Shown: positions 11,350-55,643, numbered from the stretch's first letter. The stretch is 64,000 nt of DNA from Acidobacteriota bacterium (GCA_963666215.2 CAXWPL010000005.1:832001-896000); one strand, 5' to 3'. A program made the numbers and translations. The notes: generated from the sequence alone by a model not told the origin.

Positions 11350-11365
11350 TGCTAATTTTCTACCA
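11350..11365. promoter_or_regulatory. Third BlaI-type operator, upstream of the HEAT gene
   Basis: TGCTAA-TTTT-CTACCA; same left half-site and spacing as 8802-8817. Confidence 0.55.
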
Positions 11366-11429
11366 CCTGGCGGTGGGCGATCACCTGCGCCAGCCGCACG
11401 ACCACACAACCAAGTTGCCGGAGACAATC

Positions 11430-39277: not shown

Positions 39278-40237
39278 CTAGTCGAAGAAGGCGACGTCGA
39301 TCCCGACGTCGCGCTCTTGGGCCCGGTCGTAGATCAGCCTTGCCAATGCAAGGTCCTGCACCGCGAGACCCGTCGAGTCGAAGAGCGTGATCTCGTCGTC
39401 CGACTCGCGACCCGCCTTTTCGCCGACAACGATCTCACCGAGCGCTGCGTAGATGCCGTCGCGCGTCAGCGTGCCCTCGTGCAAAGGGACGTTGACCTCA
39501 CCGCTGCCGCAGGCCTGCTCCCAATCGTCGAGAACGATCTTGGCGCAACTCATCAGGGCTCCCTCGACTTCTTGCTTGCCGTGGGCGTCGGCTCCCATGG
39601 CGTTGACGTGGCTGCCGGGCCGCACCCAGTCGGCCTGGACGACCGGCGTGTAGGAGGGCGTGGCGGTGCAGACGATGTCGCAGCCCGCCGCCTCGGCGGC
39701 GTCGCCCACGCGGCCACCGACCTCGTCGGCAAACATCGCGGCCGACTCAGGGTTGGCATCGCAACCGACGACCTCGAGATCGTCATAGACCACGCGTAGC
39801 GCTTGCAGCAACGTTCGCGACTGAACGCCGCAGCCCACGAAACCGGCGCTCTTGGCGTCGGGCCGCGCAAGGTACTTCGACGCCACTCCTGCCGCGGCGC
39901 CCGTGCGGATCGCGGTCAGCAGCGACGCGTCCATAACCGCCAGCGGCACGGCGGTCGTCGGGTCACTCAGAATGTACATGCCGAGCACGGATGGCAGCCC
40001 GTGACGCTCGGGATTGCGCGGGTGAGAGTTGACCCACTTCACCCCGGCGGAGTCGCCCCAGTACGCCGGCATCGCTCTGAAATCGCCGTCGAACTGCGGT
40101 AGGTCGAGGTAGACCTTCACGGGCATTTGGGTCACGCCGCGGCCGTGAGCGGCGAACGCCGCCTCGATCGAGACCACGGCGTCTTTCATCTCGACAACCG
40201 ATCGCACATCCGACTGGGTCAGCACTCGTGTCTTCAT
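39278..40237 (-). CDS. Ornithine cyclodeaminase/mu-crystallin family; archaeal-type alanine dehydrogenase-like
   Basis: MPVKVYL, GDFRAMPA, KWVNSHPxNP, RTGAA, FDSTGLAVQD. Confidence 0.88.
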   Translation of the reverse strand: MKTRVLTQSDVRSVVEMKDAVVSIEAAFAAHGRGVTQMPVKVYLDLPQFDGDFRAMPAYWGDSAGVKWVNSHPRNPERHGLPSVLGMYILSDPTTAVPLAVMDASLLTAIRTGAAAGVASKYLARPDAKSAGFVGCGVQSRTLLQALRVVYDDLEVVGCDANPESAAMFADEVGGRVGDAAEAAGCDIVCTATPSYTPVVQADWVRPGSHVNAMGADAHGKQEVEGALMSCAKIVLDDWEQACGSGEVNVPLHEGTLTRDGIYAALGEIVVGEKAGRESDDEITLFDSTGLAVQDLALARLIYDRAQERDVGIDVAFFD

Positions 40238-40349
40238 GCCGCCAGCCTAGCAAGAAGTCGCGCGAGACTCGTGCCCATCCCCCGCCAACAGAGCAGCTCC
40301 GGGGCCGACGCGCCACGCAACCGGGGGAGCCTTCTCATAAACTCGCTGC

Positions 40350-43127
40350 ATGGGAAGGCTGAGCACTCTGGTCGAGACGTGGCCCCTCGAGCGGCCGCGC
40401 ACCGTGTTATTGATCGCAGCCCTGGCCACTGTCCTCGCGGTTGTGTTGGGTGCGGGTATCGAGTTGCGGACCTCGCGCCGTGAGCTGGTTCCGTCGGGCG
40501 ACCCGGACCAGGCGCGCTACGACGCACTGCTGCGGGAATTCTCCGGTCCATCGCCCGTTATCGTCGCTCTCGAGGCCGCTGACGACGCGCCGAGAGCAGT
40601 CGATCTCGTAGCGCTGCAACAGGCTGCCGACGCCGTCGCCGCTGGGGTCGGGGCGCTGCATGAGGTCGACCTCGTTTTCCATCGATTGGACATCGACTGG
40701 CTGGTCGATCACGCCTTCTACCTCGTCAGCCCCACGGCATTGAGCTCGGCCCTCGACCAGCTCGACGAGCTGACCGGGGGGCCGCAAGAACAGCTCGAGC
40801 TCTCCGGAATCGCGGCGTTCAACGAGCTCCTGGCCGAGCGTGTCGAGATCGCCACGAACAAAGGAACGGGCATCACCGACGGCGGCCACGAGCAAGCAGC
40901 CCGACTGGCCGACGTGCTGCGCTGGGAGCACGAATGGCTCGAGCAGCCGGCCGAGGTCAGCGCCGGGCTGCCCGTCACGCTACCCATGGTCCAGGCGATG
41001 GGAGACACATCGATCACCAACGACGGCTATCTCACGAACCACGCCCACGATCTCTTGTTCCTCTTCGTCTCGCCTCGCGACGGCGCCAACGACCTGACCA
41101 CCGAGAGCAAGTTGGTGCTCGGCATCCGGGACGCAGCGCATGAGGCTCTGCGCCGCCACCCCGGCATCCGCGTGGGCCTCACCGGTCGGCCAGCGATGAG
41201 CGTCGAGGAGATGGCGGCCATCCGCCGTGACGGCCCGGTGACCTCCACGATCGCCATCATCGGCGTCGGATTGCTCTCGGCTCTGGCCTTCCGACGCCGT
41301 CGCCATGCGCTGCTCGGACTCGTGGTTCTGGCCGCCGGCGTGTTGTGGGCCCTGGGAGCGGTGCGCCTCGAGCTCGGCTATCTCAACCTCATCACCACGT
41401 CGCTGATACCGATCCTTGCTGGCGTCGGGATCGACTACGCGGTTCACCCGCTGTCGCAGTACGAGATCGAGAGGAGCGCCGGGCGTGATCAGGCAGCGCG
41501 GCGCGCGCTCGCGACAACGCGAACGCCCATCCTGGTTTCGGCCCTGACAACGTCCGCGGCCTTCTTCTGCTTTCTACTCATGGACTTCCGCGGCTTCGCC
41601 GAGCTCGGCCTGGTTGCGGGCTCAGGCGTGCTGTTGTGCTTGCTGGCCGCCATCATTGTGCTGCCCGCCCTGCTGGCGACCTTCGGCGAAAGCGACGCGA
41701 GCGCCCCTGACTCCACCGCGCGAGCGGCTTTCCTCGATCGCTTCTGGAGACCGCGACTAGCACAACTCGCGTGCGGCGCACCGGGCCTCGTGGTCACGAT
41801 CGCGGTCATCATCACCCTTCTGGCTGCGTGGGGAGCACGGGGAGTCAAGGTCAACACGGCGCTCGTCGACCTTCTCCCCGCCGGGTCGGAGTCGCTTCAC
41901 TACCTCCAGCGCTTGACCGAGGAATCCTCCCTCGGCGCATACTTCAACATCGTCCTGGCGGCGGACCTGCCGGAGCTAGCCGAGTTCGAGCGGCGCGCCA
42001 ACGCCAGCCCGTCGGTTGAGCGATTCGACACCGTGCTGCGATTTCTGCCACCCAATCCGGCCGCCGCCGAGGCGAGCGCCCACCGCGCCGCCGACCTGTT
42101 GGCTCGGATCGACGTGGAGTCAGCGGATCCGTCAGGAGACGTCGAACAAGCGCCTCTGGGTGAACAAGCAGAACAGACCGGGCGGGCAGAACAGGCCGAG
42201 CAGGCCAATCCGGGGCGGCTGGTTGCCTCGCTCCGCCGCCTCGAGGTGACGCTGGCCGACGCTGTTGAGGCGGCGTTCGTATCCGGACTCGCCGAGCTGA
42301 TCGAGCCTCTCGAGAATGCTCGTGCCGAGGCCGAGGCGGCCGCACAGCTGGTCGACGCCGCGGATGAGAGCTCGATGCTCGCCTGGCAGTCAGCCGAGGA
42401 GGTCCTACTACAACGCGCCGCCGGCTGGCTCGGCCAACTGCGCAACGCGGCCGCCGCCCGACCACCCGGCGTCGACGATCTACCTCTGCAAATCGCCGGC
42501 CGCTTCATCACGCGCTCCGGCCGCTATCTCGGCTTCCTGTACCCGAGCGGCAGCATTTTCGACCCACCAACGCTGACTGCGTTCAACGCCGCATCGCGCC
42601 AAATCAACAACGACGTCGTAGGTTTTCCGTTGATGTTCGAGGCGATGTCGGGACGCATCACGGCGGGATTCGTGCGCGCCCTGGGCGCGGCGAGCCTCGT
42701 CGTGCTGCTGTTGCTGCTGGCGCACCTGCGGCGGCTCGGAGACACGCTCATGGTGCTCGTCCCCGTGGTTGTCGGAACGATCTGGATGCTGGGTCTCATG
42801 AGGGTCTTCGAACTGAGCTTCAACCTCGCCAATCTCGTCGCTGTGCCACTCGTGCTCGGCGTAGGAATCGACAGCGGGGTTCACCTCGTGCACCGCTGGG
42901 GCGCCGAGGGACCCCGTCGCATACCAGCCGTCCTCCACGAGACCGGTCGCGGCGTGCTGATCGCCTCGCTGACCACGATGGTGGGCTTCGGCAGCCTCGG
43001 CCTGGCCTCGCACCGCGGCATGTCGAGCCTCGGAATACTGCTGGCGCTCGGTGTGTTTGCCTGCCTCGTTGCCTCGCTGGCGGTGCTGCCAAGCGTCTAC
43101 CTGCTGGCCGGGCGCGCCGAGCGCTAG
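40350..43127 (+). CDS. MMPL/RND lipid exporter (HpnN/BstA-like)
   Basis: Two halves with GVGIDYAVH and GVGIDSGVH; GFAELG, TTMVGFGSL, HRGMSSLG; next to the hopanoid operon. Confidence 0.88.
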   Translation: MGRLSTLVETWPLERPRTVLLIAALATVLAVVLGAGIELRTSRRELVPSGDPDQARYDALLREFSGPSPVIVALEAADDAPRAVDLVALQQAADAVAAGVGALHEVDLVFHRLDIDWLVDHAFYLVSPTALSSALDQLDELTGGPQEQLELSGIAAFNELLAERVEIATNKGTGITDGGHEQAARLADVLRWEHEWLEQPAEVSAGLPVTLPMVQAMGDTSITNDGYLTNHAHDLLFLFVSPRDGANDLTTESKLVLGIRDAAHEALRRHPGIRVGLTGRPAMSVEEMAAIRRDGPVTSTIAIIGVGLLSALAFRRRRHALLGLVVLAAGVLWALGAVRLELGYLNLITTSLIPILAGVGIDYAVHPLSQYEIERSAGRDQAARRALATTRTPILVSALTTSAAFFCFLLMDFRGFAELGLVAGSGVLLCLLAAIIVLPALLATFGESDASAPDSTARAAFLDRFWRPRLAQLACGAPGLVVTIAVIITLLAAWGARGVKVNTALVDLLPAGSESLHYLQRLTEESSLGAYFNIVLAADLPELAEFERRANASPSVERFDTVLRFLPPNPAAAEASAHRAADLLARIDVESADPSGDVEQAPLGEQAEQTGRAEQAEQANPGRLVASLRRLEVTLADAVEAAFVSGLAELIEPLENARAEAEAAAQLVDAADESSMLAWQSAEEVLLQRAAGWLGQLRNAAAARPPGVDDLPLQIAGRFITRSGRYLGFLYPSGSIFDPPTLTAFNAASRQINNDVVGFPLMFEAMSGRITAGFVRALGAASLVVLLLLLAHLRRLGDTLMVLVPVVVGTIWMLGLMRVFELSFNLANLVAVPLVLGVGIDSGVHLVHRWGAEGPRRIPAVLHETGRGVLIASLTTMVGFGSLGLASHRGMSSLGILLALGVFACLVASLAVLPSVYLLAGRAER

Positions 43128-43229
43128 CGGAGCCGGCGGGCTATTCTGAGCTCCTGGCGAAGCTCGGCTCACCCAGCCCTGGCGGGCTACCCCGCCCACC
43201 TGAACACCGGAATCTTCCATCACCGAACC

Positions 43230-44225
43230 ATGGCACCGCACCAGCGTCGGTTGCAACGCCTGAGCCTGCCCATGCCGCACCCCATCGCGGCCCTCGCGGC
43301 TCTGACTGTCCTGCTGCTCGCGACAAGCGCCGGGTCGACAACTCTCGGCGCGGTCGAGCCCTTGCCGCTGGTGAGCGTCGGCAAACAAGCCCGCAGCCAT
43401 CATCTCGTGGCGTGGGCGCCAGGCTATCCCGGCGATACCGCTCAGGCGCAGGAAACCATGGACGGGTTCGCAGCCCTGCTGGCGAGCGCCGCCGGCTGGG
43501 AGGCGCGACGCGTTAGCGCCGAGTATCACGAGACCGAGCAGGGCGGGCTCGAGCGGCTGGCCACCGACGCCACGCTCGCGCTCCTACCCCTGGCTCTTTA
43601 CATCAAACACGGCGAAGAGCTGCAGCTCGAGCCGCTGGCGCAAACCGTCCAGCCGTCGGGATCAGCGAAGGAGTCCTGGAGCCTGGTGGCCGCCCGGGCT
43701 CGCGTGACGGGCCCCGAGGCGCTCGACGGCTGGGAGATCAGCGGGATCCCGAGCTACGCCCCGGCGTTCGTCGCCGGCACGCTGCTCGGCGCCTGGGGAC
43801 AGCTCCCCCAAAGCGCCCGATTCGTGACGTCATCGCGCGTGCTGGCCGCCATCCGGCGAGCTCGCGCCAACGAGAACGTCGCGGTGCTACTCGACGGCGC
43901 CCAAACCGATGCCTTGTCGCGACTGCCGTACGCCGACGAGCTTGAGATCGTCGCGCGCTCGCCGGCGGTAATCTCCGGGCTTCTGGTGAGCGTCGGTGAG
44001 ATCTCGTCAACCGACTCCACGCCGTTGTTCGAGGGTCTCATGCACATCCACGAGCGTCCGGAGTCCGCAGCCGTGCTGCGGACGCTCCGATTGAAGCGAT
44101 TCGAACAGGTCGACACCGACTCACTCGCTGCGAGCATCGTCGCCTACCGGGCAGCGCTTGGCAGTGCTCTGGGTGAGCGCACTGGCGCCACGAACCCTAC
44201 TGACGCCGGTTCCCCGATACGTTGA
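43230..44225 (+). CDS. Periplasmic substrate-binding protein (phosphate/phosphonate-binding-like fold, BstB-like)
   Basis: Signal peptide; about 300 aa; lies between the RND gene and the lipoprotein gene. Fold call from overall pattern only. Confidence 0.55.
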   Translation: MAPHQRRLQRLSLPMPHPIAALAALTVLLLATSAGSTTLGAVEPLPLVSVGKQARSHHLVAWAPGYPGDTAQAQETMDGFAALLASAAGWEARRVSAEYHETEQGGLERLATDATLALLPLALYIKHGEELQLEPLAQTVQPSGSAKESWSLVAARARVTGPEALDGWEISGIPSYAPAFVAGTLLGAWGQLPQSARFVTSSRVLAAIRRARANENVAVLLDGAQTDALSRLPYADELEIVARSPAVISGLLVSVGEISSTDSTPLFEGLMHIHERPESAAVLRTLRLKRFEQVDTDSLAASIVAYRAALGSALGERTGATNPTDAGSPIR

Positions 44226-45067
44226 GGCCTTCGTTCCGCAAACCGGGTCGTCGGCCAGGACGGCGAAAGGCCGCGGCGATCGCCGGAGTTGTCGGCATGG
44301 CCGCTGGCGGTTGCGCAGCGGCTCTTCGACCGCCGCCGTCGATGGCCGATCTTGCGGGCGCGGCACCGGGCGCAGAAACGCAGACCGCTGCCGACCTGCT
44401 TGCGGAGGCGGCCCAGGCGTACGCTCGCCGCCCCGACGAAACGGCCGTGCGCCAGGCCGAACAGCTGTGGCTCCGTGCGGCCGCCGCCGATTCTAACGAG
44501 GTAGGAGGCCTGATCGGCGCCGTGCGCGCAAAGGTATGGCTGGCGAACCACCTCGGTGGCGTCGTGAATAAGGCGAGCCGCGAGGACGCGGCCGAGACGG
44601 CCGTTCAGGCCGCTCAGTGGTGCGAAGTTCGTGCCCCCGAGAACCCGGCCTGCGACTACTGGTTGGCGCTGGCGCTGGGGGTGCAGTCGCGCGAGCGCAC
44701 GTCGACCGCTCATAGCGGACTCGACGCCATGGTGGAACGCCTGCGCCGTGCGATTGAATCGAGTCCCGAGCTCGACTCGGCCGGTCCCGACCGCGTGCTG
44801 GCTCGAGTGTTGATCGACGCGCCAGGATGGCCGACGGGTCCGGGAGACCCCGATGAGGGCCTCATACACGCCCAGGCCGCGGTGGCGCGGTTTGGCGACT
44901 ACCCGCCGAACGTTTTGACGCTCGCCAAGGCTCTGGCCAAAGTCGGCCGACGCAGCGAGGCTCGGGAGCAGTATCGGCGCGCCCGTGATGAGGCCCTCCG
45001 AGGGCTCGGTGAATCGCACCCGGACGCCACCGAGTGGCTCGAGGAGGCCAACCGGGGCCTGGAATAA
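44222..45067 (+). CDS. TPR-like helical lipoprotein (TatT/BstC-like)
   Basis: Basic N-terminus, hydrophobic stretch and AGG-C lipobox; YWLALALG, AGPDRVLA, APGWPTGPGD; overlaps the upstream stop. Confidence 0.65.
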   Translation: MRPSFRKPGRRPGRRKAAAIAGVVGMAAGGCAAALRPPPSMADLAGAAPGAETQTAADLLAEAAQAYARRPDETAVRQAEQLWLRAAAADSNEVGGLIGAVRAKVWLANHLGGVVNKASREDAAETAVQAAQWCEVRAPENPACDYWLALALGVQSRERTSTAHSGLDAMVERLRRAIESSPELDSAGPDRVLARVLIDAPGWPTGPGDPDEGLIHAQAAVARFGDYPPNVLTLAKALAKVGRRSEAREQYRRARDEALRGLGESHPDATEWLEEANRGLE

Positions 45068-45318
45068 GAAGAGGCCCTGCGATGAATCGCCGCACTCGCC
45101 GCGGATACGCCGGGTCAAGAAGTCGCCGGGCTCAGGGAAGATCCTTGTGGCGTGCCGCGCACGGCTACATCTCGCCGAAAGGCTCGCGCTGCTCCACTTC
45201 GTGAACCCCGGGCGAGGTGCACAGCCGCCGAGGAAAAGTCAGCGCCGTCTCATGGTCGGTATGACCCGCATCGAACGAGCTTGCATCGGGCAGGTGGAGC
45301 AGATTGCCGGATCGGGCA

Positions 45319-46269
45319 TCAGGAAACCGCCTGCGGCACGCGCACGGCCGGTTCGCCACGGTCGAGAGCCTCGTTGAGCGACGCGACGATGGCGTAGACC
45401 TCCGCGCGGCCAATTTTTGCCCCCGCCCCTTCCCGTTGCACGAGCTCGAGCGTCGCGTTGGCGAGGCGTATAGGCAACGCGCAGAAGCCGACCAAGCCGC
45501 GCGGGCCGCCGGCGTCCTGCAGAGCCAGCGTGTACTCGGAGGCGAAACGAAGATCTTCGCGAGCCAGCTCGGTGACCATGTCGAGGCGGATCGACACGGG
45601 CAGGTACGAACGGCCCTCGCGAATGTCGAAGGCCGAATCCCGCAGGATATTGACCAACTGCAACGCCTCACCAAAGCGCGTCGCTCGGCTCCGCAGTACC
45701 CCGGCCACAGGCCGTAGGTGCTCGCGGCCGAGTAAGAAGAGCTCCGTGCTGAGCTCGCCGACGATCCCGGCCACGACGTAGCAGTACTGACGCAAATCGT
45801 CGAGATCGCGTAGCCGCAGTGCGCCATCCACCGTTCGCTCTACGAATCCCGACATCCCCTGCGCCGTCCGTATCGTGTGCTCCACGATGATCTCGCGAGC
45901 TTGCGCGTCGAGTGCCATCAGTGCCTCGAGCACCCGCGGAGTCTCGGCCAGAAGCTCCAGATAGCCGTCGTGCTCGATCGGCGCCTCAGCCGCCCAGCGA
46001 GCGCCGAGTTGCGCGGCCTCTTCGGCGCTTGGCTGCCTGAGAAGCCGGGCCAGGTTGGCCAGGGCATCCACCTGGCGCGGCGGCGTCCAAGCGGCAGCGT
46101 CTTCGAAGGTGTCGGCGATGCGGAACAGAAGATAGGCAACCCCAAGCTCTCGACGTGTGGGCTGAGGCAGCAGAGGAATCGAGAGCGCGAACGTACGGCT
46201 GGTCTTCTCGAGAAGCTCGTCGATGCGATCTCTTTGATCGATCAGATCTGTTCGATCGGGTGGGGCCAT
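45319..46269 (-). CDS. Squalene synthase (farnesyl-diphosphate farnesyltransferase, single-enzyme type)
   Basis: LEKTSRTFALSI, YLLFRIADTFED, YCYVVAGIVG, LQLVNILRD, GRSYLP. Confidence 0.85.
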   Translation of the reverse strand: MAPPDRTDLIDQRDRIDELLEKTSRTFALSIPLLPQPTRRELGVAYLLFRIADTFEDAAAWTPPRQVDALANLARLLRQPSAEEAAQLGARWAAEAPIEHDGYLELLAETPRVLEALMALDAQAREIIVEHTIRTAQGMSGFVERTVDGALRLRDLDDLRQYCYVVAGIVGELSTELFLLGREHLRPVAGVLRSRATRFGEALQLVNILRDSAFDIREGRSYLPVSIRLDMVTELAREDLRFASEYTLALQDAGGPRGLVGFCALPIRLANATLELVQREGAGAKIGRAEVYAIVASLNEALDRGEPAVRVPQAVS

Positions 46270-46467
46270 GACGCGCGCTGATGGTTCTCTTGGTCGATCG
46301 CCGATTGAGGGGAGCCCCCCGCGGGACGCCAGACGCCAGACGCCGGACACCACCACCGGCGACCCCGCCCGCGCAGCTCATTATGCCCTCAACTCGCGAC
46401 CCGAGAGGTGAGCTCGAAAGATTTGTGTACCCCGTCCGCGACCCGCGCCAGGCTCCGACAGGGCGCA

Positions 46468-47289
46468 CTACCTACGGCGAGCCGCGACGCGTGTACCCGC
46501 CTCGCGGCCGCCGGCGAGCAAAGATTCGGCGCGTCCCGGAACGCCACCGTTGCCGATCCACGACTCGATGCCGAGGTGAGCGAGGCGGAACGCGGTCTCG
46601 ACGCGATGATGCATGCCGCCGGTAACGTCGGTGGCGCCGGAGCCACCCACCTGTGCGAGCGCGCGCGCGCTCGCCCGCGAGTTCGAACCGTCCAAGTGTT
46701 CGATGAGCTCCCCCTCTCTATCCAACACGCCGTCAGTATCACCCAACCAGAGAGCCCGCCGCACCTCTTCACCCCGCCGCTGCAACGCACCCGCCAGAGC
46801 CAGCAGCACGGTCTCGGTCGAGCAGATGCAGGCACCGCCATCACGCTCGCGATCGAGCACGACGTCGCCGTAGGTAACGGGTACGAGGCCGGCCCGCAAC
46901 GCCAGCAGCAGCGGCTCCACGCGCACCGCGCGAGGTGTTCCACCCGCCGCCACGAGCGCGCTCGAAGGCGCGAACGAGAACGTCGCCACCCCCGCCGCCT
47001 GCAGCGCGGCGACGACGTGGCGATGCAGATCAGCCGCCGCGCCTTGCGTCCTCGAAATCCCCATCGGACTCGAGCCTCCGCGCTCGATCTGGTGCTCGGC
47101 GGCGACAATGTGGCCGAACGAGCCGCTGCCGTGGGAGAGCACCAGGTGCCGCGGCCGACGCCGCAGACCGCGAGACAGCTCCTCGGCCAGGCGCGCGAGC
47201 TGCGCACGACGCACGGTCCTCGGGCGCCGCTTCACGGTCACGATGCTGCCACCGAGCTTCACCAGCGTGGTGCCGCGCGCCGCCCTCAC
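46468..47289 (-). CDS. Isopentenyl phosphate kinase
   Basis: Amino-acid-kinase fold: VKLGGSIVT, HGSGSFGH (IPK signature His), VPVTYGDVV, DVTGGM; inside the MVA operon. Confidence 0.85.
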   Translation of the reverse strand: MRAARGTTLVKLGGSIVTVKRRPRTVRRAQLARLAEELSRGLRRRPRHLVLSHGSGSFGHIVAAEHQIERGGSSPMGISRTQGAAADLHRHVVAALQAAGVATFSFAPSSALVAAGGTPRAVRVEPLLLALRAGLVPVTYGDVVLDRERDGGACICSTETVLLALAGALQRRGEEVRRALWLGDTDGVLDREGELIEHLDGSNSRASARALAQVGGSGATDVTGGMHHRVETAFRLAHLGIESWIGNGGVPGRAESLLAGGREAGTRVAARRR

Positions 47290-48470
47290 AATCCACCCTC
47301 GGCGAGCAGGTCACGACGCGCTGAGCGTGGGTGAGGGCGATTGTCGCCGGCGTGATGGTCGGGCTGGTCAGGAGCGCGACCACGAGTCGAGTCGGCCTGT
47401 TCCATCGACGCCTCCAGATCCTTCGCGTTGCCGGCTTCTCGCACCGTCGGGCCTTCGCCGTCGAGCGCTCTCGGCCCCGAGCCGACCCGATCGCGAAGCA
47501 CGTCGTGTACGCCTTCAAGCTCGCCCAGAGCCTGCGCAACATCGCGCTCGTCACCAGGCTCACAAATCACGTGAACGTTGGCACCGGCGTCGAGCGTCGC
47601 GTAGGCGCCCACGCCGTCGGCACGCAAACGCCGCACCTGCTCCAGCACGCGCATCGTCGCCGGCGCCCAGTAGAAGATGGGCGGCAGCGACGACATGGCA
47701 ATCAGGTGCAGCTCGATGGCGTCCTCCTCGATGAGCGGCCCGAGGCGCGCCAGCGAGCGCTGTGAGATCGCTTCGCGGACGCCGTGCAATCGCGCGTCGA
47801 GAAGCTGCTGCCGGCGATCGAAATGTGGACTCGTGGTGGCGCGCCGGTGCCCATCCAACGACGACACCTCCTTGGCGCCCAGATCCACGAGAGCTATCAG
47901 GTCGCACAGCTCCCAGTGCGCCGCCGTCGCGATCTGCCGCGCGGCGTGATGGTCGGTGTCCACCGGCCATTCGACGAAGCCGCCAAACACCGACCGCGCC
48001 GCCGAGCCGGAGCCGCTCCGACGAACAAGAACCGAAAGCTCGCCCGCCTCGAGGTCCTCGTCGAGCTCGAGCGAGCGAACGGTCGCCAGCGTCAGCGCGC
48101 AGAAGCCCGAGGCCGACGACGCGATCCCGGCCGATGCCGGGAAGCTGTTGTGGGTGGCGACCCGGAAAGCTCCGAAGCCCCGGTCAGGGCACCTCGAACG
48201 GGCCCACGACCGTAATCGGTCGACGTGCGCCATCACTCGAGTCGCAAACGCACTGGGGGCAGCTTGCAGATCGCCGTTGTCGCTGGCGAGCCACACCTCG
48301 TCCATCGTGGACCCCGAGTCGTGCTCAACCGTGGTCACGCTCACGCACCGAGACAGCGTCATGGAGATCGACCGATTGAGCGGGATGGCCCGCGCCAGAT
48401 CGACGGCGCCCCAGTACTTGATGAAGGCGATATTCGACGGCGCTTCGACGGTCGATCGATGGACGCTCAT
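47286..48470 (-). CDS. mvaD: Mevalonate phosphate/diphosphate decarboxylase (probably mevalonate-5-phosphate decarboxylase)
   Basis: APSNIAFIKYWG, AGIASSASG, RRSGSGSAARS, TLDAGANVH. Confidence 0.88.
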   Translation of the reverse strand: MSVHRSTVEAPSNIAFIKYWGAVDLARAIPLNRSISMTLSRCVSVTTVEHDSGSTMDEVWLASDNGDLQAAPSAFATRVMAHVDRLRSWARSRCPDRGFGAFRVATHNSFPASAGIASSASGFCALTLATVRSLELDEDLEAGELSVLVRRSGSGSAARSVFGGFVEWPVDTDHHAARQIATAAHWELCDLIALVDLGAKEVSSLDGHRRATTSPHFDRRQQLLDARLHGVREAISQRSLARLGPLIEEDAIELHLIAMSSLPPIFYWAPATMRVLEQVRRLRADGVGAYATLDAGANVHVICEPGDERDVAQALGELEGVHDVLRDRVGSGPRALDGEGPTVREAGNAKDLEASMEQADSTRGRAPDQPDHHAGDNRPHPRSARRDLLAEGGL

Positions 48471-49735
48471 GGTGTGACTTCGATCCGCAAGCCATCGACT
48501 CCCAACGGAGCGTCGAAAGCGCGCAGACCGTCAAGATAGCCCAGCCCAGGCAAACCAGCGCTGCGAGTGGCGATCTCGGCTTCGGTCTCCGCCGCAGCAT
48601 CAGAAATCGGCGGGCTCGGCGCCAGCGTCTGAGTCTCACGTCGGTGCGGTATCTCCGGGCCGAGAACCAGGAGCGACCCTGCACCCGGGCCGGCCAGGGA
48701 TCCGGCGCCCGAGATCTTGGCGGCGGACCCACCGGCCTCGATCCGCCGCACGAGCTGGCGAACGGCGGTGGGCACCACACCTAGATTCTCGAGGCACGAT
48801 TGGTAGGAACGCACCGACTCGCGCATGACGTCGTATCTGAGTTGTGAATCTGAATTCGTCGTCGAAGGTTCGATCGCGATCGCCCGCAGAAACCCGCGAG
48901 TTGCCTCCTCCATCGTATCGAGCAGCGCGTCGAAGCCGTCGGGGTCGCGGTCGCGACGAGCCCGAACGTCGGCGACTACGCTTCCGGTGTCCTCGCCAGG
49001 TGGCCCCGTGTGGAACACCTGCAACGACCGCAGGGCAGATATCGAAACCTGCACCACACGGCGCTCCAGCTCCCCGTCAGCGCTCCGGCGCGCCCAGAGG
49101 ACGCCCCCGTGCATCACTGTTGCGGCGTCGACACCGGACGGGCGACCGTGCTGGCAGCGTTCCACCGTAGAGGCCAGGCCTTCGAGGTCGCCGGGCGACG
49201 CGGGGACGGCGAGCACGACGCCGACGGCCGAGCAGACCGCCACGGCCGTCGCGGCGGAGCTGCCGAACCCGGAACCGACCGGTATTTCCGAGTCGATCCG
49301 AAGACGGAGCTCCGGCAGCCGACGAGCCCGGAGCAGCGATGTCGCGCTCGACGCAACAACACCCAATGCCAGCCTCACCGGACTCGAGCGGTCGTCGTCG
49401 CGCAGCAACGCGAATCTGGCCGGCGTTGGCTCGGCGTCGTAGCCCTGCCATAGAGCCAGCCGCGCGGCCGCATGCTCGCGAAGCTCCAACCAGGAAGAGC
49501 GGGCCCGGTACCCGATAGCCGGCAAGTCGATGTCGACGCCGGAGTCTTCAGGCGGTGCCCTGGCACCAACTCTCCGCGCTTGCGCCCGCAACCGTAGGCC
49601 GAAGGCGGCCACCAGGGCCGGACGACCGTACACCACGGCGTGCTCCCCCATGAGGATGAGCTTGGCGGGAACCGAAGCCACAACGGCCGTCGGCAGGTCG
49701 GGCGCGGAGGTGGGGTTCACAATCGCTCCGCCCAC
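48467..49735 (-). CDS. mvk: Mevalonate kinase
   Basis: PAKLILMGEHAVVYG, PVGSGFGSSAA, HGRPSGVD, KISGAG. Confidence 0.9.
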   Translation of the reverse strand: MGGAIVNPTSAPDLPTAVVASVPAKLILMGEHAVVYGRPALVAAFGLRLRAQARRVGARAPPEDSGVDIDLPAIGYRARSSWLELREHAAARLALWQGYDAEPTPARFALLRDDDRSSPVRLALGVVASSATSLLRARRLPELRLRIDSEIPVGSGFGSSAATAVAVCSAVGVVLAVPASPGDLEGLASTVERCQHGRPSGVDAATVMHGGVLWARRSADGELERRVVQVSISALRSLQVFHTGPPGEDTGSVVADVRARRDRDPDGFDALLDTMEEATRGFLRAIAIEPSTTNSDSQLRYDVMRESVRSYQSCLENLGVVPTAVRQLVRRIEAGGSAAKISGAGSLAGPGAGSLLVLGPEIPHRRETQTLAPSPPISDAAAETEAEIATRSAGLPGLGYLDGLRAFDAPLGVDGLRIEVTP

Positions 49736-49741
49736 GGCGCG

Positions 49742-51163
49742 CTAGTTGTCGATCGTCCGGCCACGCCCGAGTCGCTCGTGGGCCCCAGCCAGGTCCCGCG
49801 AGGTGAACGCGGCCATCAGCGAAAGCTCGCCGGCGAGTACCGCGGCGCCAAGAATCTCAGCCAGCCTGCGAACCGCGTACCCCGGCCGCTCGGGATCGGG
49901 GAGAGCGTTCATCAGCGCCAGCGCCTCGTGTTGTGTTGCGAGCCCGGTACCACCGCCGATCGCCGCAATCGGCACGTCGGGTAGAAAAACCGACACCATC
50001 ACGCTGTCACGATCGCCAGGCGCCCTCTCGATGCAGGTCACCCCCATCGACGCTTCCGCAACGTGAGCGAGATCTTGACCTGTGGCCAGGAAGAATGCCG
50101 CGATAACGTTGGCGAAATGCGCGTTGGCGCCGATCGCCCCGGCGGCGATCGAGCCCAGCAGGTTCTTGCGATACTGCACCTCTGCCAGCGCCGCGGCGTT
50201 GGTCTTGAGGCGCTCGAGGATCTCCTGATTCAGAACCACCTCGGCGTGCACACGTTTGCCCCGGCCTTCCTGGAAGTTGACCGCAGCGGGCTTCTTGTCG
50301 ACGCAGTAATTGCCCGAAAGCGCGACGCAATGCACATCGGTCTCGGGCTCGATGAGCCTATGGACGACGCGGTCGCAAGCGATCGTTGCCATGTTCATTC
50401 CCATGGCGTCGCCTGACTCGAAGCGGAACCGTAAGAACACGGTCGTTCCGAAGGCGTACGATCGGATGTCGAGCAATTTGAGGTGCCCACTCGTACTCTC
50501 CGCGACCTCGCGAATACGATCCTCCGACTCGGTCACCCACGCGATGAAGCGGCGGTTCTCGACGATACCTGTGGTTCTAAACACCGGAGCCCGAGTCATT
50601 CCCACTTCTTCGACTCGAACCGTCGCCCCGCCGGCCGCGCTGATCGCCGAACAGCCTCGATTGATGCTGGCCACCAACGCGCCCTCCGTGGTCGCCAGCG
50701 GCAAGTACACGTCCTCGTCGATGACGTGCTCTCCGAGCACTCTGAGCGGACCCGCAACTCCCATCGGCACCTGCGCCGCGCCGATGAAGTTCTCGCAGTG
50801 GCGGCTCGAGGCTAGCTCTGCGTCGAACGAGTAGTGGCTGATGTGGTCGAAGGAGATCTCGGCGTCCCGAGGCTCACTCGCGCCGGCGGTCCGGTTGGCG
50901 CTGGCGATGTGCCGCACTGCCCGCCGACGCGCTTCCGCCGCATCGGAAGCCGCGATCTCGCCGCCGAGTTGATGCAAACGCCGCTCGCCGGCGACGAGCT
51001 GCTCGACTATCGCATCCAGGCGACCGGCGGAATCCTGCTGCTCGAGCTCGGCGCCCTCATCACTCGAGTCGGCCGTTGATCGAGGGCCCGACTCGGAACA
51101 GTCGACTTCCGGGTCAATCTCCTCCGACGCCCCCGAGATCGACGCGGACACAGGTTCGCTCAT
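49742..51163 (-). CDS. hmgA: HMG-CoA reductase, class I (archaeal/eukaryotic type)
   Basis: CENFIG, PLATTEGALVASINRG, GDAMGMNM, SGNYCVDKK, TGQDLAH, GELSL. Confidence 0.93.
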   Translation of the reverse strand: MSEPVSASISGASEEIDPEVDCSESGPRSTADSSDEGAELEQQDSAGRLDAIVEQLVAGERRLHQLGGEIAASDAAEARRRAVRHIASANRTAGASEPRDAEISFDHISHYSFDAELASSRHCENFIGAAQVPMGVAGPLRVLGEHVIDEDVYLPLATTEGALVASINRGCSAISAAGGATVRVEEVGMTRAPVFRTTGIVENRRFIAWVTESEDRIREVAESTSGHLKLLDIRSYAFGTTVFLRFRFESGDAMGMNMATIACDRVVHRLIEPETDVHCVALSGNYCVDKKPAAVNFQEGRGKRVHAEVVLNQEILERLKTNAAALAEVQYRKNLLGSIAAGAIGANAHFANVIAAFFLATGQDLAHVAEASMGVTCIERAPGDRDSVMVSVFLPDVPIAAIGGGTGLATQHEALALMNALPDPERPGYAVRRLAEILGAAVLAGELSLMAAFTSRDLAGAHERLGRGRTIDN

Positions 51164-51166
51164 CGA

Positions 51167-52279
51167 TCAGATCCTCCGCCGCACCAGCGGCGTGCCTGCA
51201 AGTGACTCGAGGTCTGCCGCGCCAACGCAGAACATACAGATGCGCAGCTCGTGGAGTGTCCTGCGCATCGAGGCGACGACCGTGGCGGCCGATTCGGTGG
51301 CGCCTTGCAGGAACGGCCGCGCCAGCCCGACGATGTCGGCTCCCATCGCAATCGCCTTGCCTACGTCGAGGCCGTTGCGCACGCCACCACTGCCAATCGT
51401 GATCGTGTCGGGCAGCGCCGATACGGCGGCAATGCTGTCGGGTGTAGGCACGCCCCAGTCGGCGAACAGCTCGCCGAGCGCCGCATCGTCGGCCCGAGCG
51501 GCCTCGATTCGGGCCCAACTTGTCCCACCCAACCCAGCGGTGTCAATCACGCGGACTCCTGCGTCGAACAGCTGTCGAGCAACCGTCGGCGACATACCCA
51601 TGCCGATTTCCTTGACGATGACTGGCACCTCGAGCTCCTCGACAACCTTCGCGATCTTCGCCAGCAGATGCGAAAAATTGGTGTCGCCCTCGGGCTGAAT
51701 TGCCTCCTGCAGTGGGTTCAGGTGCAACACCAACGCGTCGGCGCCGATCATCTCCACGGCCTCACGACACTGCGCGACATCGTAGCCGTAATTGAGCTGC
51801 ACCGCTCCTAAATTGGCCAGCAACGGCACGCTGGGCGCCAAATGGCGCACCTGGAAGGTGGAGCGCGCCGACGCTGAGGGATCCTCGATCGCTTTCCGCT
51901 GTGAGCCCACGCCGATCGCGACACCGACCTCCTCCGCTGCGATCGCCAGGTTGCGATTGATCGCGGCCGCCTCGGGCGTACCCCCGGTCATGCAGGAAAC
52001 CAGCAGCGGCGCGTTGAGCTGCTGACTCAGAAACGATGTCGACAGATCGACCGCGGCCATGTCGAGCTCCGGCAGCGCGCGGTGCTCGAACGCGTAGTGG
52101 TCGAAGTAGCGCGCCCCGAGCTGCATGTGCTCGCGCAATGCCAGCTGGATATGCTCCGCCTTGCGATCACGCTGGCCGGCCGCGTCTTCGGAAAGAGCTT
52201 CGCTGGCGCGACCATCGCCGGAAGGACCCACGTCGGAGACGGAGTCGTCGATTAATGTGGTCGAGTCGGTGGGTTTCAT
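51167..52279 (-). CDS. fni: Type 2 (FMN-dependent) isopentenyl-diphosphate isomerase
   Basis: RKAEHI, MTGG, GSQR, HLNPLQEAIQPEGD, VKEIG, GGTSW, SGGVRNG. Confidence 0.95.
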   Translation of the reverse strand: MKPTDSTTLIDDSVSDVGPSGDGRASEALSEDAAGQRDRKAEHIQLALREHMQLGARYFDHYAFEHRALPELDMAAVDLSTSFLSQQLNAPLLVSCMTGGTPEAAAINRNLAIAAEEVGVAIGVGSQRKAIEDPSASARSTFQVRHLAPSVPLLANLGAVQLNYGYDVAQCREAVEMIGADALVLHLNPLQEAIQPEGDTNFSHLLAKIAKVVEELEVPVIVKEIGMGMSPTVARQLFDAGVRVIDTAGLGGTSWARIEAARADDAALGELFADWGVPTPDSIAAVSALPDTITIGSGGVRNGLDVGKAIAMGADIVGLARPFLQGATESAATVVASMRRTLHELRICMFCVGAADLESLAGTPLVRRRI

Positions 52280-52309
52280 GGCGTCAGGATAGGGGCACAT
52301 CCGTTGCTG

Positions 52310-53110
52310 TCAAACTTCGTCGCTCCCGGGACGGGTGCCGGCAATGAGCTCTTGGGCGAAGTTCGCCAGGCGCGTAGCGCTGCGGTTCATCCGGGTTCGC
52401 AGACGCAGCAGGGCTGCCACGGAACGCGGCCGCCAGATTGCCTTGCCCACCACCTTGCGCTGATCGATGCTGCCGTCCTGGCGCCGGCAGTCTTCGAGAA
52501 AAGACGGGAGGCTCTCGCCCGCCGTGTCGGTGATCGCTCGCACGATCAGGTACGGAAGCCCATACGCGGTCGCTACTCGCGCGAAACAGGCCGACTCCAT
52601 GTCTACCGCCGCGGGCTGATCGCGCTCGGTCTGCCCCCACCAATGCTGCTTGCCTTCCGGAGTTGCGACGATCTCGTCAACCGTCACCAGGCGACCGAGC
52701 TCGTAGGACTCGCCAGTAACGGCCACCTCCTCGAGCCACTGCAGATCGGGACGCGCCAGAACGTCGTTACCCTCGAGAACCTCACTCGATACGACCAACT
52801 CGCCAACCTTGAGCTTGCCGGATAGGGCTCCGGCAATCCCGAGCGCCAGCACGCGGCGCGGCGTGCACTTCTGGATGAGCTTGCGCAATCCGATATCGGC
52901 GTTGCGCTTGCCATCGCCGGTGACGCAGAGCACCACCGGGACGCCTTGGATGAGCCCTTGTGTGTAGCGTGCCGGGCCGTTCTTGATTTCCACTCGCTCG
53001 CGCACACGTTCGCGCAGGACGACGATCTCGTCCTCCATGGCCGTTACGACCGCAATCAGCTCGTCGCTCTCGGGCTCGCGGCCGCTGGGTCTGGTTGCCC
53101 TACTTGTCAT
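52310..53110 (-). CDS. hpnG: Hopanoid-associated nucleoside phosphorylase (HpnG-like)
   Basis: TAMEDE, GIAGAL, VDMESA, RAITD; in the shc-hpnH operon. Confidence 0.75.
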   Translation of the reverse strand: MTSRATRPSGREPESDELIAVVTAMEDEIVVLRERVRERVEIKNGPARYTQGLIQGVPVVLCVTGDGKRNADIGLRKLIQKCTPRRVLALGIAGALSGKLKVGELVVSSEVLEGNDVLARPDLQWLEEVAVTGESYELGRLVTVDEIVATPEGKQHWWGQTERDQPAAVDMESACFARVATAYGLPYLIVRAITDTAGESLPSFLEDCRRQDGSIDQRKVVGKAIWRPRSVAALLRLRTRMNRSATRLANFAQELIAGTRPGSDEV

Positions 53111-53181
53111 AACCGTGATCTCGAAACCACTGCACCGCGCGTTGGAGCGCAGCTTCGACCGGGCTCTGGGGGAGCCCTAGC

Positions 53182-54224
53182 TGTGTTTTCTAAGTAGGTT
53201 GTTCACATCGGGGCTCACTTCTGAGATCAATGGGGTTGTTCAAAAGACTCCACGACCTCAGAAGGAGTGCCCGATGCAGCTGCATGGTAACGCCCGCACG
53301 ACGCCGTATATACGCCGAGAGATGGTCCGCCGAGTCCGGGAGCGGGCGGAGCCCGTGACGGAAACGGCGGCGGCGCTCGGCGTGTCGGCTCGAACGGTTT
53401 ACAAGTGGCTGGATAGATACGAGCGAGAAGGTGAGGCCGGGCTGCTCGATCGATCAAGCCGGCCGACGTGCTGTCCGCACGCAACAAGCGCTGGAGTTGT
53501 GAGGCAGATCGACAAGCTACGTCGGCGGCGACTGACGGCCTGGCAGATCAGCCGAAGGTTGGCTGTGCCGCGCTCGACCGTCTCGGCGTGGCTGAAGCGG
53601 CTCGGACTCGCCAAGCTTGATGCGCTCGAGCCCAAGCCCGAGATCGTTCGCTACGAGTACGAGCACCCCGGTGACCTACTGCACCTGGATACGAAGAAAC
53701 TGGCCCGTATCCGGCGACCTGGACACCGCATCCACGGCGACCGCTCCAAGCGGGCCTACGGCGTCGGCTGGGAGAACGCCCACGTCGCTATCGACGATCA
53801 CTCTCGGGTGGCGTACGTCGAAGTGCTGCCCGCCGAAGACCAACACACCTGCACAGCGTTCCTGCAGCGAGCCGTCGAGCACTTCGCTTCGATGGGAGTA
53901 GCGGTGCGCCGAGTGATGACAGACAACGGGCCTGGCTACGTCTCGAAGCGCTTCAATCGCCTATGCCATCAACTCGAGATCCGGCACATTTACACCCGGC
54001 CCTACACCCCCAGAACCAACGGCAAAGCCGAACGCTTCATCCGCACACTCAAGGAGCAGTGGGCCTACGGCACCTGCTACCAGACCTCAGCTCGACGTAC
54101 TCGAGCTCTACGGCCCTGGCTCAACCACTACAATCGTCACCGTCCCCACGCCGGCATCGGCATGACACCGCCGATCGCTCGGCTCTCAGGGGTGAGTTCG
54201 TGAACAACCTACCTAGAACTCACA
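53182..54224 (+). mobile_element. Complete IS481-family insertion sequence (1043 bp)
   Basis: 25-bp terminal IRs TGTGTTTTCTAAGTAGGTTGTTCAC / TGTGAGTTCTAGGTAGGTTGTTCAC (22/25 match); 6-bp TSD CCTAGC at 53176-53181 and 54225-54230. Confidence 0.95.
53274..54203 (+). CDS. IS481-family DDE transposase
   Basis: HGNARTT, LHLDTKKL, IDDHSR, MTDNG, TNGKAERF; AAGGAG RBS. Confidence 0.95.
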   Translation: MQLHGNARTTPYIRREMVRRVRERAEPVTETAAALGVSARTVYKWLDRYEREGEAGLLDRSSRPTCCPHATSAGVVRQIDKLRRRRLTAWQISRRLAVPRSTVSAWLKRLGLAKLDALEPKPEIVRYEYEHPGDLLHLDTKKLARIRRPGHRIHGDRSKRAYGVGWENAHVAIDDHSRVAYVEVLPAEDQHTCTAFLQRAVEHFASMGVAVRRVMTDNGPGYVSKRFNRLCHQLEIRHIYTRPYTPRTNGKAERFIRTLKEQWAYGTCYQTSARRTRALRPWLNHYNRHRPHAGIGMTPPIARLSGVSS

Positions 54225-54641
54225 CCTAGCTCCTCGATTGCCCGGCATGGATCGAAGTACATGCGATGGCGCGACATTCGAACCGCCTCAACGGTGACCC
54301 GCGGCTGGCGCCCGAGCAAGCGCGAGGCGCCCTCGTCGCAGCCGAAGGTCGAACGCGATCAAGGGTGCCGGAAACGGCATCGCCGCGCCGGTCAGGGTCT
54401 CCGGCAGCAGCCACCAGATCACCCTCGACGAGCCTCGCGCCCAAGCCTTCGATGTTGTCGCAGCGTGCTCCAGCCCGCACGAGGCAGCGCACCTCGTCAC
54501 CCCGACGATGCAGCGCTTCGGCAACGTGAGAGCCTATGAAACCGGTCGCACCGGTGACGAACGACACAGTCATCGAGCGTATTCAGATCGAGCGGACGGC
54601 TTAGAGAACGCGCCCCGAAGGCGCACCATCGCGGCTCGTGC

Positions 54642-55643
54642 TCAGCCCAGGAAGTTCCACTTGGCCATCCGCAACATGTCGCGAGGGCTCTTGACGAGCT
54701 CCTTGACGACGGAGGCTTCGAAGCCCGAGTGCATGGCGCAGTTCTGGCACCTTCGGTCCTGCCGCGACTCCCAATACTCCCAATCGACCCCCTCCCAGAA
54801 CTCCTCCCAGGTGTCGAAGTACTTCTCGCCAATCAAGTAGCACGGTCCCTTCCAGCCGAGTGGCGTATAGGTAACAGTGCTCCAGGGTGAGCACGAGTAG
54901 TCGCGCATCCCGGCGGCGAACTCGAGAAACATCGGCGTAGAGTTGAGCCGGTATTCCTCTGCGAACTCGAGCACGGGCTTGAACTTGGCCTCGATGTCCC
55001 GGCGAGTCAGGAAGATGTCGCGATCGATCTGCTCGTAGTGGTACCCAGGCGAGATCAGCATGCCGTCGACGCCGAGCGCGGTCATCTGCGAGCACAGCTG
55101 CTCCACCTCGTCGATGTCGGTTTCCTTGAACACCGTCGTGTTGGTGAACACGTGATAGCCGCGCTCGATGCAGGCCTCCACCATCTCCACCGCGGTGTCG
55201 AACACGCCCTCGCGGTCGGTGACGTAGTCGTGGGTCTCGCGCATCCCGTCGAGGTGAACGTTGATCGTCAATCGCTTGTCCGGTGGGACGCAATCGAAGA
55301 GCCTCTTTTCGATCAGCAACGCGTTGGTGCACAGGTAGATATGCTTGCCGCGCTCGATAATTCCCTCGACGAGCTCGGGCAGCTCGGGGTACATGAGCGG
55401 CTCACCACCGCAAATCGAGACAATGGGAGCCTCCGCGGCATCGACGGCGGCCAGACAGCTCTTCAAGGAAAGCCTGTCGACGAGCTTGCCCGTGTGGCGC
55501 TCCGGCGTGCAGCCGATACAGGCCAAGTTGCAGGCGTAGAGAGGCTCGAGCATCAAGACGAACGGATAACGCTCGCGCCCGGCACGTGCATTCCGCCACT
55601 GATGCTTGATGTTGTCGGTGGTGATGTGCAGCGGAAATCGCAT
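54642..55643 (-). CDS. hpnH: Adenosyl-hopene transferase (radical SAM)
   Basis: VLMLEPLYACNLACIGC (CxxxCxxC), ICGGEPL, YLCTNAL, CQNCAMHSGFE. Confidence 0.9.
   Translation of the reverse strand: MRFPLHITTDNIKHQWRNARAGRERYPFVLMLEPLYACNLACIGCTPERHTGKLVDRLSLKSCLAAVDAAEAPIVSICGGEPLMYPELPELVEGIIERGKHIYLCTNALLIEKRLFDCVPPDKRLTINVHLDGMRETHDYVTDREGVFDTAVEMVEACIERGYHVFTNTTVFKETDIDEVEQLCSQMTALGVDGMLISPGYHYEQIDRDIFLTRRDIEAKFKPVLEFAEEYRLNSTPMFLEFAAGMRDYSCSPWSTVTYTPLGWKGPCYLIGEKYFDTWEEFWEGVDWEYWESRQDRRCQNCAMHSGFEASVVKELVKSPRDMLRMAKWNFLG

Follow-up and report, generated by a model that had tools for sequence, protein, structure and literature searches.

Remote BstABC homologues beside squalene synthesis genes and a decaying hopanoid cluster in an Acidobacteriota genome

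To our knowledge, the BstABC proteins form the only known bacterial system for sterol trafficking, and the inner-membrane pump HpnN is all that is established for hopanoids. Here we report on a trio of genes at positions 40350–45067 of a 64,000-nucleotide stretch of DNA from an Acidobacteriota bacterium (GCA_963666215.2, CAXWPL010000005.1:832001-896000; the whole stretch is called the window below). The locus bears on how very hydrophobic triterpenoids cross the periplasm, a function fulfilled for sterols by BstABC in methanotrophs. The three encoded proteins are true but remote homologues of BstA, BstB and BstC, sharing 19–26% identity, and their genes converge on a squalene synthase gene, beyond which lies a hopanoid gene set with a broken cyclase.

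Bst homologues have been described in methanotrophs, and the BstC cluster comprises 13 sequences, mostly from Methylococcaceae and Deltaproteobacteria, according to the passages on these proteins in PMC10942540 and PMC11713862; the same passages do not raise hopanoids or squalene as cargo. Full-text literature searches for BstA, BstB and BstC together or for BstB with sterols returned only the eLife paper PMC10942540, its preprint and an Accounts review as relevant, and a search combining squalene, outer membrane, Acidobacteria and mevalonate yielded nothing relevant by title or abstract. HpnN is described as a stand-alone hopanoid pump or as one for which a 2026 preprint (10.1101/2025.07.29.667474) proposes the partners HpnM (MlaC-like), HpnS (MlaA-like) or HpnT (lipocalin-like) in Proteobacteria; the text of that preprint does not mention any Bst, phosphonate-binding, tetratricopeptide or TatT protein. 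The TatT or TPAT T-components are partners of TRAP transporters and bind long-chain fatty acids, as stated in the relevant passages of PMC11713862.

Homology of the trio to BstABC

The first-pass annotation of the window had proposed a BstABC-like transporter encoded by an RND/MMPL gene, a gene for a protein with a signal peptide and an overlapping lipoprotein gene, converging on triterpenoid genes. We found the corresponding open reading frames (ORFs) in this arrangement, all on the plus strand:

40350–43127, plus strand: bstA/hpnN-like gene for an RND (MMPL, HAE3-type) inner-membrane pump, 925 amino acids (aa)
43230–44225, plus strand: bstB-like gene for a periplasmic substrate-binding protein, 331 aa
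44222–45067, plus strand: bstC-like gene for a tetratricopeptide repeat (TPR) lipoprotein of the TatT superfamily, 281 aa

The database version of the bstB-like gene starts 14 codons downstream and codes for 317 aa, and the ORFs of the bstB-like and bstC-like genes overlap by 4 bp (GTTGA). The G+C content of the window is about 66%, and a gene caller based on the G+C content of third codon positions mis-called many loci; gene identities therefore rest on tblastn and hidden Markov model evidence instead. On the same evidence, we dropped an antisense ORF (44144–45118) which this caller had placed at the position of the bstC-like gene. All three proteins matched the respective NCBIfam Bst models, and the structures of BstB (7T1M) and BstC (7T1S) were on top in the PDB sequence and fold searches, which bears out the proposed relationship.

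The pump matched Pfam family MMPL (PF03176) with 105.4 bits (cut-off 20.5) in two stretches, accompanied by weaker Patched and sterol-sensing matches. Its hydropathy profile shows one N-terminal transmembrane segment, transmembrane blocks at about residues 295–499 and 769–923, and soluble loops of about 250 aa between them. These are the properties of an RND pump of the MMPL/HAE3 type, with the 1+5 / 1+5 transmembrane layout fitting only roughly, because the hydropathy-window method merges helices. The protein aligned end to end with the BstA model NF045600 (protein 14–916, profile 14–893 of 903) at 367.8 bits (E 1.1e-109), short of the equivalog cut-off of 1400, and scored equally on the HpnN model TIGR03480 (368.5 bits, cut-off 751.85), while a second HpnN model, NF052374, gave 236.5 bits and was likewise not reached (cut-off 1100). 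Its best PDB sequence matches are the HpnN structures 5KHN and 6WU0 (E 8.5e-39). 5KHN and 5KHS are structures of HpnN from Burkholderia multivorans, and HpnN is also known from Rhodopseudomonas palustris. No gene of the window's genome (4.65 Mb in 5 contigs, 91.7% complete) reaches the HpnN cut-off, and the pump of the trio is the best HpnN-like gene there. A second HAE3/HpnN-like RND gene is located elsewhere in the genome (G000:C1:282923-285244), with a frame of 917 aa and 115–120 bits per half on the HpnN model.

The bstB-like protein carries a hydrophobic signal-like N-terminal segment (residues 17–37) without a lipobox Cys and matched the Pfam family Phosphonate-bd with 36.9 bits (cut-off 27) and the BstB model NF045601 with 41.9 bits (E 6.7e-11), below the cut-off of 350. 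When all PDB sequences were searched, the sole match was BstB 7T1M (E 2.2e-6). An AlphaFold model calculated from an alignment of 25 relatives (predicted local distance difference test score, pLDDT, 89.8) retrieved 7T1M at Foldseek rank 1 (E 2e-18, template-modelling score 0.85 when normalised to the target, root mean square deviation 2.8 over 254 columns), followed by ArrX, PtxB, AioX and PhnD; the fold is bilobed and PhnD-like. The sterol hydroxyl is contacted in BstB by Glu118, Tyr120 and Asn192 (residue lists in PMC10942540, from which we derived a numbering offset of +20). In the phmmer alignment to 7T1M, these residues align with Glu, Trp and Asp of the bstB-like protein; in the family alignment, the Asp is invariant and the other two are nearly so, and the hydroxyl-binding site of BstB is not retained as such.

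The bstC-like protein starts with a hydrophobic stretch followed by Cys31, which is nearly invariant in 22 relatives; its N-terminal sequence ...MAAGGC31 fits the lipobox rule. It scored 72.7 bits on the BstC model NF045602 (E 3.1e-20, cut-off 350 not reached), and its best PDB sequence match is BstC 7T1S (E 7e-14), with TatT 8G52 only marginal (E 0.065). The AlphaFold model, based on an alignment of the 22 relatives, is all-helical (pLDDT 88.8) and retrieved chains B and A of 7T1S at Foldseek ranks 1–2 (E 2e-7, target template-modelling score 0.77); 8G52 followed at rank 13 (E 4.4e-4, score 0.60). The loop A200-P201-x-W203-P204-x-G206-P207-G208-D209 is invariant in the 22 sequences, and the corresponding loop of BstC borders the entrance to its cavity (PMC10942540). 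The protein thus combines the TPR/TatT fold, a lipoprotein signal and the entrance loop of BstC, whose Glu86 is outside the sequence alignment and unmappable. With 7T1M and 7T1S ranking first after structure prediction and Foldseek searches, the two downstream proteins do not have the unrelated folds which the first-pass annotation had named as evidence against its proposal.

We know of no solved complex of BstB with BstC, and the PDB searches returned the two only as separate entries. A predicted complex of the mature bstB-like and bstC-like proteins scored 0.65 versus 0.35 for the best control. Of 80 solved complexes, 58 come up to this mark, as do 2 of 110 mismatched pairs, counts which apply only roughly since our own alignments were used. 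Three runs shared at least 90% of the contacts with a partner pLDDT of at least 91, values which express the confidence of the model and are no measurement. The predicted interface consists of residues 160, 199, 202–205, 209–212 and 241 of the lipoprotein, taking in most of its family-invariant loop, and residues 55, 189–192, 195, 210–211, 213–214, 217, 267, 270–271 and 273 of the binding protein, of which R195, A210 and Q211 are invariant. The invariant loop of the lipoprotein would therefore abut the binding protein on its cleft face (189–195, 210–217), and the residues two and three positions from the conserved Asp fall inside the predicted interface. As a model, this contact supports a geometry suited to handing off a lipid from one protein to the other.

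Squalene and hopanoid genes beside the trio and their distribution

The genes downstream of the trio were assigned as follows:

45319–46356, minus strand: sqs, eukaryote-type squalene synthase-like, convergent with the trio (SQS_PSY and TIGR01559 matches)
46468–52300, minus strand: mevalonate genes ipk, mvd, mvk, hmgr and idi2 (NCBIfam and Pfam matches)
52310–53110, minus strand: hpnG-like nucleosidase (NCBIfam HpnG 120.6 bits, cut-off 187.1; an MTA/SAH nucleosidase model also matches)
53109–54561, minus strand: hpnA remnant in three pieces, 53109–53186, 54221–54313 and 54391–54561 (tblastn with the HpnA-like gene of genome G305)
53177–54229, plus strand: IS481-family insertion element, transposase 53199–54203 (NCBIfam IS481 transposase 310.5 bits, cut-off 224)
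54642–55643, minus strand: hpnH (adenosyl-hopene transferase), apparently intact (TIGR03470 372.6 bits, cut-off 225)
55653–57638, minus strand: shc (squalene-hopene cyclase, SHC) with an in-frame TAG at 57501–57503 (TIGR01507 670 bits)
57797–59185, plus strand: sulfotransferase gene, beyond shc

The Sqs protein scored 131 bits on Pfam SQS_PSY, and its best NCBIfam match was the squalene synthase model TIGR01559 (86 bits, under cut-off). The cyclase next to the trio had been annotated as a hopanoid and not a sterol enzyme. By family this is correct, as the protein scored 670 bits on the SHC model TIGR01507 (cut-off 431) compared to 277 bits on the model for oxidosqualene cyclase (OSC; cut-off 851), but the gene is interrupted. 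Its frame starts at 57638 and contains a TAG as codon 46, leaving as the longest open part 55653–57434, from an internal ATG at 57434. At the equivalent codon, the SHCs of genomes G305 and G334 have Gln, as part of the motif L-L-S-L-Q-Q-x-D-G-H-W, and a further related SHC has Arg. Because the TAG is found unchanged in the contigs of four public runs from four studies, one of which represents a slightly different strain with three other substitutions, it is not an assembly error. In the neighbouring sulfotransferase gene, the contigs of all four runs lack 9 letters of the window (57956–57965), an in-frame length difference.

A second lesion affects hpnA. Genome G305 contains an intact HpnA-like gene of 327 aa between hpnG and hpnH, whereas the remnant in the window keeps only the equivalents of residues 4–56, 275–305 and 301–326 and has lost about 220 codons (approximately 57–274); it is split by the IS481 element, whose 30-nt inverted ends (53177–53206 and 54200–54229) are 87% complementary. 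The hopanoid cyclase is broken, and the hopanoid genes are decaying in the window's genome. Sterol synthesis genes are not apparent either: searching the genome, at its completeness of 91.7%, with the OSC model retrieved only the SHC gene as a cross-hit (286 bits), and no PF08491 domain of a squalene epoxidase was present. An OSC in this genome, which would have spoken against the earlier proposal, was thus not found. Likewise, the sterol synthesis genes osc and smo do not accompany the trio, which has sqs, genes of the mevalonate pathway and hpn genes as its neighbours (no search was made for sdmA and sdmB).

We compared the locus among 301 genomes of the phylum, 11 of which, including the window's own, belong to the same family. 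Within this family, a BstB-like protein and an Sqs orthologue each occur in 10 of the 11 genomes, the lone genome without them being only 77% complete, and SHC occurs in two. Nine family loci were compared, with one contig starting inside bstA, one ending just past bstA and the gene upstream visible in seven. As far as the contigs reach, the order is OCD, bstA, bstB, bstC, convergent sqs, ipk, mvd, mvk, hmgr, idi2 and hpnG-like; sqs follows bstC directly in eight of the nine loci and after a gap of 8 kb in the other, and the Sqs orthologues beside the trio are 58–65% identical. In the nine family genomes without SHC, the trio is still intact beside sqs. The hpnG-like gene is retained in family genomes without shc and hpnH, and in one highly contiguous shc-less genome it abuts the sulfotransferase gene, leaving no room for hpnH or shc. 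No HpnH above cut-off was detected in the four shc-less family genomes tried (0/4). The adjacent hopanoid cyclase had been the ground for expecting a hopanoid cargo, an argument which is not supported, with shc interrupted, hpnA reduced to a remnant and SHC missing in most of the family.

The two genomes used as references above preserve a more complete arrangement. G334, which belongs to another family, has sqs, ipk, mvd, mvk, hmgr, idi2, hpnG, hpnH and shc colinear in one block, and G305, from the same family, shows the order idi2, hpnG, hpnA, hpnH, shc. Because of the colinear block from sqs to shc, the hopanoid genes are probably ancestral and were later lost, while the trio and sqs stayed.

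Strong BstB-like matches, defined as 215 bits or more, were present in 26 of the 301 phylum genomes (tallies including G202 and G074, flagged unpublished). An Sqs-type orthologue occurs in 16 of these 26 genomes compared to 15 of the 275 others, any SQS_PSY gene in 24 of 26 versus 149 of 275, and an SHC above cut-off in 7 of 26 versus 48 of 275. Additionally, a scan with degenerate patterns, using one genome per species, retrieved 55 loci, labelled mostly as Anaeromyxobacter or other Myxococcota and as Acidobacteriota, in 50 of which the bstB-like and bstC-like genes form an adjacent pair. Gene contents were counted in 50 of the 55 genomes, leaving out L051, L056, L057 and L058 (short contigs) and L059 (the same metagenome-assembled genome, MAG, as L014). 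Two named Anaeromyxobacter isolates (loci L031 and L044) combine the pair with an intact SHC. SHC exceeded the cut-off in 12 of these 50 pair-bearing genomes; together with the 7 of 26 versus 48 of 275 phylum genomes, this rules out that the BstB/BstC-like family as a whole tracks SHC.

In a quick maximum-likelihood tree of 71 BstB-like sequences, calculated without the Methylococcus Bst proteins and after dropping two exact duplicates and rows below 180 residues, the window's protein belongs to a clade of 20 rows (SH-like approximate likelihood ratio 98). All 20 source genomes contain SQS_PSY genes, and seven contain SHC. The trio in the window's clade is tied to squalene synthesis rather than to the cyclase. 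The SQS_PSY genes concerned are either of the Sqs type or tandem pairs, and the one pair checked belongs to hpnC-hpnD-hpnE; in an shc-less member of the clade, HpnC and HpnE exceeded their cut-offs and HpnD was just under. At locus L092 (G314:C4:1353000-1367000), hpnC, hpnD and hpnE lie at about 4739–7800 with no SHC match, and several other BstB-bearing phylum genomes contain tandem SQS_PSY genes and no cyclase. Squalene-only bacteria may thus be common in the phylum. That the whole family tracks squalene synthesis is ruled out for the distant clade, since 22 of the 50 pair-bearing genomes are without SQS_PSY and all 22 fall there.

A Myxococcota sub-clade of this other clade shows the order bstB, bstC, PAP2, Omp85-like, sqs, shc, (hpnA, hpnG), hpnH in all five MAG loci with more than 3 kb of downstream flank, and in L017 sqs lies 2.6 kb upstream. 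The loci L028, G334 and G213 form a BstB-like sub-clade in genomes with OSC-like cyclases. The OSC model was run on the window's genome and 10 others; among five pair-bearing genomes it revealed two OSC-like cyclases (773 and 680 bits). OSC-like cyclases with 670–808 bits on TIGR03463, none reaching the cut-off of 851, were noted in L085, L086 and L087 of the phylum sample and in L061 and L062, whose genomes are labelled Myxococcaceae and Acidobacteriota; four of these five genomes carry a BstB/BstC-like pair. In genome G053, consecutive genes encode an HpnN-like RND protein, a FAD oxidoreductase, a BstB-like protein of a more distant kind and SHC; the gene between pump and BstB-like gene was considered as BstC-like and rejected as FAD-oxidoreductase-like (hhalign probability 0.1%). 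In L012, L016 and L029 (11.6–17 kb), the pair is followed by a protein of about 750 aa with fn3 domains and one of about 1000 aa with a CarboxypepD_reg domain and a TonB-dependent-receptor-like barrel, which may be further outer-membrane parts. Apart from these subjects, the window contains at 9273–12749 a gene for a BlaR1-type M56 peptidase fused to HEAT repeats, followed by one for a second HEAT-repeat protein.

Cargo of the putative relay

We read the trio as an operon for a BstABC-type envelope relay of a squalene-derived lipid, which in this genome would be squalene itself, and consider the chances of this reading to be about even. The proton-driven RND pump would take the very hydrophobic lipid out of the inner membrane and hand it to the soluble periplasmic binding protein, which would then dock with its cleft face on the entrance loop of the TPR lipoprotein, anchored in the outer membrane as the receiver of the lipid. 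The cargo would be the product of the convergent sqs gene, a squalene-derived triterpenoid lipid, and the ancestral cluster would also have made hopanoids. In this scheme, we infer which way the lipid travels, that the receiver sits in the outer membrane and what the cargo is. Because shc is interrupted by a nonsense codon and hpnA is destroyed, the cargo in this bacterium is most likely squalene itself; of the two cargoes suggested before, hopanoids or squalene, the gene content would favour the latter, with hopanoids the weaker candidate here. They are likely to be the ancestral or an alternative cargo where SHC is intact, and the distant members of the BstB/BstC-like family must carry something else. 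As a more tentative extension, for which we see the chances as clearly below even, a group of Acidobacteriota which makes squalene, but whose triterpene cyclase was lost or never present, would place acyclic squalene in the outer membrane via a Bst-type relay, and Bst would be a general triterpenoid conveyor whose cargo, be it sterol, hopanoid or squalene, depends on what the genome makes.

Several observations weigh against the relay as proposed. The Bst scores remain 4- to 8-fold under the NCBIfam cut-offs, and the cargo is deduced from gene neighbourhood and co-occurrence among related, non-independent genomes. Dxr was not found in the four family genomes tried (4/4), so the mevalonate genes represent the housekeeping isoprenoid route, and only sqs, not the whole cluster, argues for a triterpenoid cargo. 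With 173 of 301 genomes, SQS_PSY genes are widespread across the phylum as a whole, which makes their presence in 24 of 26 strong BstB-like genomes only a modest enrichment. The internal ATG may still give rise to a truncated SHC, or the TAG may be read through. No promoter-like or terminator-like sites were detected in 39900–45500 (shuffle means 0.5 and 2.3), so the boundaries of the operon could not be drawn. A pump of the window's type was found in only two of the 55 loci, and the neighbouring pump in the other 53 is not of this type; in 36 of the 55, an ORF for another MMPL type, about 790 aa long, was called, which in most cases adjoins the pair in divergent orientation. Among the 50 pair-bearing genomes, we regard 36 as cyclase-free since their matches to the SHC model do not exceed 34 bits, and a SQS_PSY gene (E<=1e-20) is present in 28 and absent in 22; one of the genomes lacking such genes is L038, labelled as a whole chromosome. 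Finally, the conserved polar Glu/Trp/Asp site in the cleft is not what a pure hydrocarbon needs.

Some of these points speak for the trio being a general transporter of a non-isoprenoid lipid, such as a fatty acid or a phospho- or amino-lipid, with its adjacency to sqs inherited and functionally meaningless. The 22 genomes without SQS_PSY, the 36 without a cyclase and the polar cleft site all agree with such a role, as do the fn3 protein and the TonB-dependent-receptor-like barrel after the pair in some loci and the long-chain fatty acids bound by TatT-superfamily relatives of BstC (passages of PMC11713862). We nevertheless regard it as a serious but rather unlikely alternative, since the window's 20-row clade occurs wholly in genomes with squalene synthesis genes, a position next to sqs or shc is seen again and again, in at least three lineages of two phyla, and both sequence and fold place the sterol binders, rather than the fatty-acid-binding TatT, nearest among the characterised relatives. 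Less likely still is a hopanoid-specific exporter consisting of an HpnN-type pump with partners of its own, for which squalene would only be a precursor made next door. The pump does match the HpnN model as well as that of BstA and has HpnN structures as best PDB matches, the ancestral cluster probably held shc and hpnH, judging from the orders in G334 and G305, and the five Myxococcota loci and G053 have their BstB-like genes within hopanoid clusters. However, the trios of the window's family stay intact with SHC in only two of 11 genomes and HpnH in none of the shc-less ones tried, the contiguous shc-less genome has no room for hpnH or shc after its hpnG-like gene, the window's own shc and hpnA are defective, and SHC is present in only 7 of 26 strong BstB-like genomes against 48 of 275 others.

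Characterised bacterial pumps of the HAE3/MMPL type are known to export their substrates, which counts against the trio taking up or handling sterols supplied by a eukaryotic host or by the surroundings. We consider this highly improbable, also because Tyr120 of BstB is replaced by Trp, the conserved neighbour is sqs, and the MAGs in which relatives occur carry many different labels and do not point to an association with a host. Compatible with exogenous sterols are the lack of a detectable OSC in the genome, the sub-clade of L028, G334 and G213 in genomes with OSC-like cyclases, the presence of near-identical DNA in a seawater-metagenome run and, at smaller shares, in sponge-metagenome runs (no habitat claim rests on the latter), and the sterol binding of the closest characterised relatives (PMC10942540).

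If the proposed placement of squalene by a Bst-type relay is true, squalene would be a trafficked structural lipid of the bacterial outer membrane. The locus in any case offers concrete soluble proteins as candidates for squalene or hopanoid binding, and it points to bacteria which keep squalene synthesis after the loss of the cyclase, with a bearing on the role of squalene in bacterial membranes. It also matters for the assessment of hopanoid potential from gene clusters in which the cyclase is broken.

Comparison with known systems

Acidobacteriota- and Myxococcota-labelled genomes which make hopanoids, OSC products or only squalene also contain the Bst architecture, in the form of a large and diverged family. 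From the HpnN system, the trio shares the HAE3/MMPL pump with two periplasmic domains, but the partners of the pump have other folds than HpnM, HpnS or HpnT. The lipoprotein shares the all-helical TPR fold with a central tunnel with the TatT/TPAT T-components (Tp0956 and Enhygromyxa TatT 8G52), but here it is encoded with an RND pump and a PhnD-like protein as partners, and its relationship to BstC is clearly closer.

The differences from BstABC itself are the low identities of 19% (B) and 25–26% (C) in structural alignments, the exchange of Tyr120 for Trp and of Asn192 for Asp in the window's family, the surroundings of sqs, mevalonate and decaying hopanoid genes with no osc or squalene epoxidase found in the genome, and the occurrence in carriers labelled Acidobacteriota and Myxococcota instead of methanotrophs. 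In common with BstB, the binding protein keeps Glu118, and the entrance loop of BstC, K-A-P-A-W-P-A-G-M-G-D, corresponds to A-P-G-W-P-x-G-P-G-D in the window. BstB 7T1M and BstC 7T1S are the best or only matches of the two proteins in sequence and fold, and the trio repeats the composition of BstABC of Methylococcus capsulatus as given in PMC10942540, with a pump of the RND/MMPL type, a periplasmic protein resembling PhnD and a TPR lipoprotein resembling TatT encoded in the same gene order.

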